Below are positions 35,283 through 37,002 of a DNA stretch of 64,000 nucleotides, piece by piece. Source of the stretch: Octopus vulgaris (taxonomy: Eukaryota); the NCBI GenBank assembly GCA_951406725.2, contig OX597816.1, positions 182,342,001 to 182,406,000 on the forward strand, given 5' to 3'. The notes under the pieces are model-generated. The model ran no database searches and was not told the DNA's origin. It saw only the letters and a program-made list of their open reading frames with translations. Position numbers and translations under genes: made by a program. Each line of letters starts with the position of its first letter. Position 1 is the first letter of the stretch.

Positions 35283-35440
35283 TCCGTTGTAGCGGGGAGA
35301 GAGAGAGAAGCTGTGAGGGAAAAGGGAGAAGGGAGGAGAGAGGAAGAGATTGTGATTGTGAGGAAGGGAGGAATTATATTATATTATATTATATTAATTT
35401 ATATTAATCTAATAGTGCAATAGGGGGTAGGGAGAAAGTA

Positions 35441-35830
35441 GAGAAAGGGAGCGTCTATGTACTTAAGGAGAAATTGGGAGCCGAGAGTAAGAGAGAAGAG
35501 GAAGAGGAGAGACTGAGAGCTGAAGGAAGAGAGAGAAAGCGTCTATGTCCTTATATGTATCCGAGAGAGGAGAGTAAGTTAGAAGAGAAAGGGAGCGTCT
35601 ATGTACTTAAGGAGAAATTGGGAGCCGAGAGTAAGAGAGAAGAGGAAGAGGAGAGACCGAGAGCTGAAGGAAGAGAGAGAAAGCGTCTATGTCCTTATAT
35701 GTATCCGAGAGAGGAGAGTAAGTTAGAAGAGAGAAATGGAGAGACAAGGAGAAGCGGGAGAGAAACTGAAGAGATAGAAGAGAGTAATGGAGAGACAAAG
35801 AGAAGCGGGAGAGAAACTGAAGAGATAGGG
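35441..35830. repeat. 144 bp tandem duplication plus ~48 bp purine-rich repeats in the family D leader
   Basis: GAGAAAGGGAGCGTCTATGTAC at 35441 and 35585; GGAGAGACAA..GAAGCGGGAGAGAAACTGAAGAGATAG twice. Confidence 0.85.
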
Positions 35831-36134
35831 AGAGAAGGAAGAAATATAGAGAGAATTTATATATTTGAAAGAGGGGAGTAAGATAGAATGAGAGCTATGA
35901 AGAGACAAGGAGAAGCGTGAGTGAGAGAAACTGAAGAGACAGACAGAGAGAGAGAGAGAGAGAGGGGAGAATTCTAAGCGAAGCTATTTGTACACACACA
36001 CACACGCGTATACATACATACACATACACACATATACACATGTGTGCACACGCACATATATAAACAGTAGTACCAAGTGAGTATATAAAGAAACAATAAT
36101 AATAATAATGAAATAGCTGAAAGAAAACAATCCA

Positions 36135-36388
36135 AGAGATTTTACAGAAATTAAGCAGAGAAAAAGAGAAAAGAAAATATGTATTTGTCGCTACAGACAA
36201 TGTATTCTAAAATAAAAACTAATTGTGACTATACTTTTAACACACACATATACATACACATAGAGATTTTACAGAATTTAAGCAGAGAAAAAGAGAAAAG
36301 AAGATATACATTTGTCCGTCGCTAAAACAATGTCTTCTAAAAATAATTGCGGCTATACTTCTAACACACACATATACATACACATAGA
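36135..36388. repeat. ~127 bp diverged tandem duplication
   Basis: AGAGATTTTACAGAA.TTAAGCAGAGAAAAAGAGAAAAG...CACACACATATACATACACATAGA twice. Confidence 0.8.
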
Positions 36389-37002
36389 TATATTATTATT
36401 TTCTGTTTGAAAGAACACTAATGATAACAAAATAAGTAATATTTTTTTCTTACCTTACCGGCTGAGAGAGAGTACTTACGCGATTCCTTTTTATGAGAAA
36501 GGAAGATAGATAGACAAGACAGACCTTTATTCCCCAAGCGCACTTTGTAAACAAAAGGGATTTGAGTTTCGATGTAGCACGTGCAACAGGTTGAGGAATA
36601 CTTTCTGTATTTCCCTAAGCGATTTGGTATTAAGCAGCAAATTTTCAGAGGCTTTTTTCAGAACACGCAGATATACATCAAAAACGAAAATATCCTGTGT
36701 CTTGTTGATTCACAGACGAAGAATAAAATTCACTTCGATTTCGGGAAAGTAACACACGTGCGTTTTAACACGTGTATTCGCGAGTATGTTCTAGTTGCAA
36801 ATACTATATCAAAAGCGAAAATATTCTTCTCAAATACAGTGACTTGTTGTACTTTCACTTATATTCGCTTTGCAGACAATTTCGCTTCTGATAACATCGA
36901 TCTCTGGAAGGACTTCCTTAATGTTTAGGAGAGAGACGTTAACACACTTGTTATTAGTTCAGCGCCATCTTTATATATAAATATATATATATGTATATAT
37001 AC

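Follow-up and report, generated by a model that had tools for sequence, protein, structure and literature searches.

A 5' leader exchanged between distant LINE families of Octopus vulgaris, with an intron-like part that may occasionally be spliced

Results

Architecture and classification of the element

The window, by which we mean the whole 64,000-nt stretch of Octopus vulgaris DNA that was analysed, carries a long copy of a LINE family that we call D (Table 1). ORF1 gives weak Myb/SANT-like and CCCH matches, both under the Pfam cut-offs, and ORF2 matches RVT_1 (3e-30) and Exo_endo_phos_2 (5.7e-11). LINEs of the CR1 group end in short tandem repeats instead of poly-A and leave many 5'-truncated copies. 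In family D we find endonuclease and reverse transcriptase (RT) together in ORF2, a separate ORF1, 5'-truncated copies and a short-repeat 3' tail, the latter in the window copy and in nine of ten other copies (the remaining one reads N). The majority of RT matches are unnamed; the named ones come from an argonaut (62-64%) and from birds (RT proteins, 35-40%). Judged by this architecture and by the bird matches, the clade of family D appears to be CR1-group-like. A search with ORF1 returned three relatives only, and the nearest named protein carries the label Octopus vulgaris in its source (98% identity across 55% of ORF1). A Penelope-like element was ruled out by the APE-RT architecture, which is not that of a GIY-YIG endonuclease with pLTRs.

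Other repeats share the window. Truncated at their 5' ends, copies of families E and G lie at 41803-44810, 11119-14129, 51495-55184 and 26368-27369, at about 70% to D. Arrays of a 15-bp satellite (27838-28964 and 55406-59605) are interrupted by several inversions and have short spacers in common with 24091-24257. A young repeat adjoining (TA)n, with 8-nt tandem units at its end, occurs three times (5907-7292, 9009-10790 and 45018-46813; about 98% alike), and a 495-bp tandem repeat (61895-64000) turns inverted near 63600, which is possibly an assembly feature.

Table 1. Features of the family D element and its 5' flank, in window positions.
Feature	Position	Strand	Remark
(TA)n array, 5' flank of the element	36972..37434	.	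other copies of these families also sit in such arrays
Start motif AAGATGGCG	36963..36971	-	where most of the 40 scored matches begin
5' module, about 580 nt, candidate internal promoter	36395..36971	-	common to families D, E and F
ACGCACG (ACGCAC[AG] motif), candidate promoter element	36757..36763	-	found post hoc
Three GTAAG donor-like sites	36448..36479	-	36479, 36458, 36453; unused in all 84 genomic copies
Leader body	35372..36394	-	shared with F; more distantly with H, whose 5' module differs
Polypyrimidine tract and CACAG acceptor	35311..35371	-	common to D leader 1 and D leader 2
Spacer from acceptor to ORF1, 28 nt	35283..35310	-	similar to the 32 nt that follow the used acceptor of family I
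ORF1, 311 aa	34347..35282	-	ATG at 35282
ORF2, 969 aa	31408..34317	-	AP endonuclease and reverse transcriptase
3' tail, short AAAAGAGT-type repeats without poly-A	31324..31352	-	runs into a (TA)n array

A leader that belongs to the element

The family D leader is 1.69 kb long, and it travels with the ORFs, as the first-pass annotation had presumed: the same leader is found in 11 other long copies (L051-L061), which are 95-100% identical to the window element over 5.6 kb. Using the first 496 nt of the leader as query, we obtained 130 candidates, scored the best 40 and compared the 39 hits other than the window copy over 9.9 kb, the 11 long D copies being among these. Nearly all of these best 40 of 130 matches start at the same base, and in the window copy the start motif begins at 36971, directly beside the (TA)n array. 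The leader is thus neither flanking DNA nor a host exon, since copies share both its sequence and its sharp 5' start. No host gene was seen as a source of the 5' module among 84 copies, in a search by exact patterns and by the best 40 of 130 matches that would miss a diverged source.

This leader (leader 1) is not confined to family D. The census of 84 copies, a union of several searches that includes the window copy and in which some copies on small contigs may be assembly duplicates, comprises 53 copies of family E, 19 of D, 9 of F and 3 in which no ORF1 could be reached. In family F most of the leader is present, in family E only its first 581 nt or so (E copies have 92-95% BLAST identity to the module, up to element position 581). 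Over aligned bases, the modules of D, E and F agree at 96.5-98.3%, whereas the ORF2s of these families are 71-76% identical. The leader body, TG/TA-rich and then CT-rich with tandem units of 124 and 144 nt, is shared by family H from about position 580, behind another 5' module that lacks GTAAG. Conversely, the D ORFs also stand behind an unrelated leader (leader 2, at 12 loci), with which the common part is the last 89 nt including the CACAG acceptor, and the window leader tracks F down to 35372 and D leader 2 from 35371 on. Donors and acceptor have therefore not been inherited as a unit: the former are shared with E and F, the latter with D leader 2, and since they come from different lineages they were likely joined recently. 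Family G has a third, AT-rich leader, and families I and J have a common fifth leader start in front of different ORF1s, making five leader types across the seven families D, E, F, G, H, I and J. Subfamilies of bird CR1 elements reportedly differ in their 5'UTRs as well.

Diversity within the module is highest in E (mean 2.9%), lower in F (2.2%) and lowest in D (1.2%). A tree built from the 53 of 84 copies that were long enough and N-free places D in one clade (support 100/96). On this tree, which has no outgroup root, the leader probably passed from E to F and then to D. The swap of a leader across distant, co-active LINE families is the firmest of our results.

Two observations on other leaders deserve mention. 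The ORF1 start of family G has 587 candidates, of which the best 40 scored are near 100% identical, a pattern that likely reflects a very young burst; its leader (in L128 and the other G copies, L122-L151) is 1.5 kb long, consists of AT-rich tandem units in which TTTTCAG recurs, and contains a single ATG in 1,530 nt, versus 13.7 expected. Separately, one D copy with leader 2 (L100, the same as L099; G000:C9:56314958-56315462, minus strand) shows 27 sense A>G changes among 44 differences from two kin, mostly at leader positions 172-444, and all 12 of its private changes in a 300-nt alignment of seven copies are A>G. The 5' neighbours of the changed A are T in 17 cases, A in 5, C in 5 and G in none, which we read against what we take to be the neighbour preference of ADAR. 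This copy looks like an ADAR hyper-edited, unspliced leader RNA that was reverse-copied into DNA; our literature search found nothing on genomic copies of ADAR hyper-edited LINE RNA.

Promoter-like motifs

The leaders start with AAGATGGCG or with (AC)TTCCGG. We take the first to be a YY1-type motif, and the names YY1-like and ETS-like are used here for resemblance only. The motif ACGCAC[AG] lies at positions 210, 196, 26 and 211 of four unrelated leaders, with per-leader P values of 0.007-0.024 for a motif chosen post hoc. In the first 520 nt, TAAGTA[CT] is found in all four leaders compared (per-leader P 0.07-0.18). The total of shared 6-mers among leaders is not above chance (9 against 6.5 expected, P=0.22), so that a conserved U1-pairing core in TAAGTA[CT] is to be taken as a lead only. 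In leaders 2, 3, 4 and 5 (L105, L128, L226 and L277) this motif falls within the first 370 nt, with A or T where a donor would have its G; possibly, it is there an unspliceable U1-pairing or protein-binding site.

Splice-like motifs of the leader

The first-pass annotation had proposed that a spliceosomal intron lies in the leader, and reading the minus strand bears out all of its motif positions. The donor-like sites (a slash marks the boundary) are CGC/GTAAGT with its G at 36479, CCG/GTAAG at 36458 and AAG/GTAAGA at 36453, the last reading GTAAGA in the window copy only and GTAAGG in the other 18 of 19 D copies. Two of the three belong to one 5-nt tandem repeat, and they pair at 7-8 of 11 U1-pairing positions; a comparison of D, E and F, at 2-8% divergence, has no power to reveal conservation of these sites. 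At the other end, CACAG ends at 35311, 28 nt upstream of the ORF1 ATG, and is the last of eight acceptor-like sites in the leader; the preceding 30 nt are 97% pyrimidine and the AG-free zone spans 96 nt. The family D leader thus has both a GT donor and a pyrimidine tract with a YAG acceptor, and its shortest candidate intron measures 1,143 nt. GTAAG occurs three times on the sense strand and five times on the antisense strand, and in 1000 dinucleotide shuffles at least three copies are reached with P=0.10 and two within 30 nt with P=0.018. Given these modest values and the pyrimidine content of the tract, it is the acceptor that stands out, whereas the donors do so only slightly.

A textbook acceptor is kept 6-32 nt upstream of ORF1 in families D, E and I, and a pyrimidine-rich acceptor is absent in F, G, H and J. 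The representative G and H leaders that were examined are long and lack GTAAG. Sixteen ATGs precede ORF1 in D, of which splicing would leave three, and the last 733 nt of the leader are ATG-free; the corresponding intron of family E contains no ATG.

Genomic copies and the intron

If spliced RNA were copied back, some genomic copies should lack the intron. The first-pass annotation had suggested a check for copies that lack exactly 35311-36453, and not one of the 84 leader-1 copies shows splicing at these donors. Counted from the acceptor, family D has no spliced copy among 45 (43 retain the intron, one is truncated into (TA)n and one has a small duplication), and the exact exon-exon pattern for D has no match in the genome. 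Aligning leader-1 copies that differ by at least 25 nt in length, we found no GT-AG ends in any of 25 internal deletions. Family E was counted from the donor side, a count that covers the GTAAG cluster and not donors upstream of it; of 30 loci compared, the 13 that extend to the ORF1 start of E are unspliced.

Family I is different. One of its 28 copies (L296, the same as L259 and L278; G000:C4, minus strand, 5' end near 91011861) is missing precisely a GT...AG leader segment of 1,144 nt, with a normal 5' start and 3' end. At the junction, ...CAAAAAG is joined to CCTCTACT..., where kin read AAG/GTTT...TAG/CC across 1,099-1,144 nt; the exact ends come from this comparison with kin, as the aligner gap was displaced by an A-run indel. 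The acceptor in the kin ends a long pyrimidine tract 32 nt upstream of ORF1 and resembles that of D, and the 3' end of the deletion is one of only two AGs in the last 400 nt of the leader. Like a SpIRE, L296 has both element ends and lacks a GT-AG segment, in this case as one copy whose junction slides by 2 nt (AG). Its donor is weak (GTTT), and seven other internal deletions of the same copy are not GT-AG; one of 247 nt in ORF2 starts with GT and does not end exactly at AG, and was not counted. With 25 deletions in leader 1 and 16 in family I leaders, 48 other deletions were scored, several of them common to kin and hence not all independent, and none has GT-AG ends. By a rough estimate, the chance that one of some 49 deletions would start with GT and stop exactly at the predicted acceptor is under 1%. 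The AG is kept in 26 of 27 unspliced family I copies, while position -4 varies. A copy missing precisely that GT...AG segment means that this leader type was likely spliced at least once and then copied; and because L296 was inserted into the genome, spliced RNA is evidently not barred from serving as a template.

It is also conceivable that these motifs are by-products of other processes, the CT tract arising by slippage under selection against ATGs, GTAAG by chance or as a protein site, and L296 as a DNA deletion at the 2-nt AG microhomology. The GTAAG count and the antisense copies fit such an origin, and so do the further deletions of L296 that lack GT-AG ends, the apparent matching motif of other leaders (ACG-ATAAGTA or GAT-TAAGTA), which offers no possible GT donor, and the G leader, which is nearly free of ATGs with no tract at all. 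We nevertheless regard it as unlikely, for the L296 deletion starts with GT and ends exactly at the predicted acceptor, and three lineages retain a pyrimidine tract ending in YAG immediately upstream of ORF1.

Alternatively, the acceptor could act as a splice trap, with copies in host introns splicing host exons to ORF1 and borrowing host promoters, and with 5' modules swapped independently. This would account for an acceptor that accompanies its ORF1 lineage through exchanges of the upstream modules, as in D leaders 1 and 2, and a precedent is given by RAP1GDS1-L1 in the accessible part of one preprint (bioRxiv 2025.02.02.635956). However, none of 45 D copies or 28 I copies carries a host exon on the acceptor, and the module junctions at 36395 and 35372 are not splice junctions, which makes a trap very improbable.

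Contigs of sequencing runs and the proposed splicing switch

Four sequencing runs were examined as contigs, three guessed to be RNA and one unlabelled; none is recorded as RNA. No junction at the named sites was seen in the 15 of 27 joints and the 24 of 345 loose ends covered for the run contigs. Contigs from two runs guessed to be RNA, X1 (34315-35355) and X3 (34528-35355), run unspliced through the acceptor and 44 nt beyond, and a contig of a third, X11 (36406-36525), spans all three donors unspliced, in a run with no coverage of the ORFs. Contigs drop rare forms and may contain DNA or read-through LINE RNA. At the 14 informative alleles the X1 contig agrees with a leader-2 copy (L098) at 14, with two leader-1 copies at 12 and with most leader-1 copies at 2, and as it fits leader 2 best it tests the D acceptor more than leader 1. 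As far as these samples go, the contigs argue against a dominant spliced form.

These data bear on the proposal of the first-pass annotation that spliced RNA is translated and unspliced RNA serves as template. In such a switch, splicing would be efficient or conditional and would make the mRNA, as has been proposed for Penelope-like elements. The strong acceptor just before ORF1 in D, E and I speaks for it, as do the 13 of 16 upstream ATGs that splicing would take out in D, the single use of an equivalent acceptor in family I and the AG kept in nearly all unspliced I copies. The zeros among genomic copies (0/84 and 0/45) do not refute it either, because a switch also predicts zero spliced D copies, and the right tissue may be unsampled. 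Against it stand the contigs that bridge both ends without any junction, the spliced I copy that itself reached the genome, the separate origins of donor and acceptor, the G and H leaders without GTAAG, the lack of a pyrimidine-rich acceptor in F, G, H and J, and an E intron with no ATG to remove. Moreover, the cis-preference of LINEs disfavours translating one RNA and copying another (PMC5860796, in part). The switch is hence not supported, and we hold it improbable. Little credence likewise goes to its broader form, in which a true regulated leader intron is combined with exon-like shuffling of promoter and first-exon modules, so that splicing clears upstream ATGs in some tissue while unspliced RNA is the template. 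The intron claim itself survives in part: the equivalent of the acceptor has been used once in family I (1/28), and the named donors (0/84) and the D acceptor (0/45) have left no trace of use in genomic copies.

Discussion

The reading we favour, with a probability of about 60%, is that the leader is an element-borne mosaic 5' leader of a young LINE, likely with a promoter and with an intron-like part that is occasionally spliced, while unspliced RNA would be both message and template. Its pieces, from three related LINE families, would have been joined by template switching during reverse transcription. The module of about 580 nt would be an internal promoter, with its YY1- or ETS-like start and ACGCAC[AG] near +200, and the GTAAG cluster might act mainly as a U1-binding or promoter-downstream signal. 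By cis-preference the same unspliced RNA would be translated and copied, and rare splicing would lead to promoter-less, dead-end copies, as in human L1 SpIREs. Translation of ORF1 despite the 16 ATGs upstream might proceed by reinitiation or by internal entry on the ATG-free 733 nt, which is a guess. Leaky splicing of leaders is likely in this clade, judging from the one family I copy.

The closest parallel is human L1, at least in the accessible portions of PMC5860796. There, most 5'UTRs escape splicing, spliced forms account for about 2% of full-length copies, and the splice donor is maintained within a RUNX3 site. Our first-pass annotation had started from the premise that copying from spliced RNA should purge introns, and that their retention is documented for Penelope-like elements and not for CR1 LINEs; human L1, with 5'UTR splice sites and rare spliced retrocopies, calls for a correction of this premise (PMC5860796, in part). 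As in SpIREs, splice donor and acceptor lie inside a promoter-bearing LINE leader, the promoter role being a candidate one here, and most RNA is unspliced, in our case in runs guessed to be RNA. Intronless long copies, which in L1 have lost promoter sequence, make up about 2% there (same source, in part); the corresponding counts are 1 of 28 for family I and 0 of 45 for D. Unlike those SpIREs, the element described here is CR1-group-like and belongs to an invertebrate, and it has a long pyrimidine tract with an acceptor just before ORF1 (PMC5860796, in part).

Wholesale replacement of leaders is also known in L1, where co-active families exchange parts (PMC5872511 and bioRxiv 2025.02.02.635956, both in part), and among L1s promoter turnover is described as mammal-specific in the passages available of PMC5872511. 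In contrast to that case, one near-identical module heads three co-active families here, with ORF2s only 71-76% alike (PMC5872511, in part). As for the CR1 group, 13 recently active families have been counted in a study whose accessible part leaves their leaders undescribed (PMC13282606), and no paper on leader introns or shared leaders in this group was found by title or by the start of the abstract.

In Penelope and Chlamys-3, a 5'UTR intron overlaps the internal promoter and is retained in genomic copies (PMC8557442, in part). Splicing in these elements is known from transcripts, whereas family D is known from genomic copies and is an APE-RT element, not a GIY-YIG one (PMC8557442, in part). 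Penelope-like control by splicing in an APE-RT LINE was absent from the open-access literature searched. A different parallel comes from human promoters, whose grammar includes YY1, ETS, NRF1 and U1 snRNP motifs, with YY1 placed shortly after the start site and, farther downstream, a 5' splice-site motif that takes effect after initiation (bioRxiv 2023.06.27.546584, in part). The likeness of our leaders to this grammar is one of motif names given by resemblance, and it compares human genes with mollusc LINEs (same preprint, in part).

Leader swapping and leaky splicing, known for mammalian L1, would extend with these octopus elements to an invertebrate and to another LINE group. The swap crosses families only 71-76% alike and is recent enough for its junctions to be placed at single-base resolution. 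The combinations of five leader types with seven sets of ORFs are natural chimeras, a tool with which to ask what a promoter needs and what U1-type sites do without splicing. Repeat libraries will merge or mis-join such families through their common module. And if it were true in family D, regulated splicing would amount to Penelope-like control in an APE-RT LINE.
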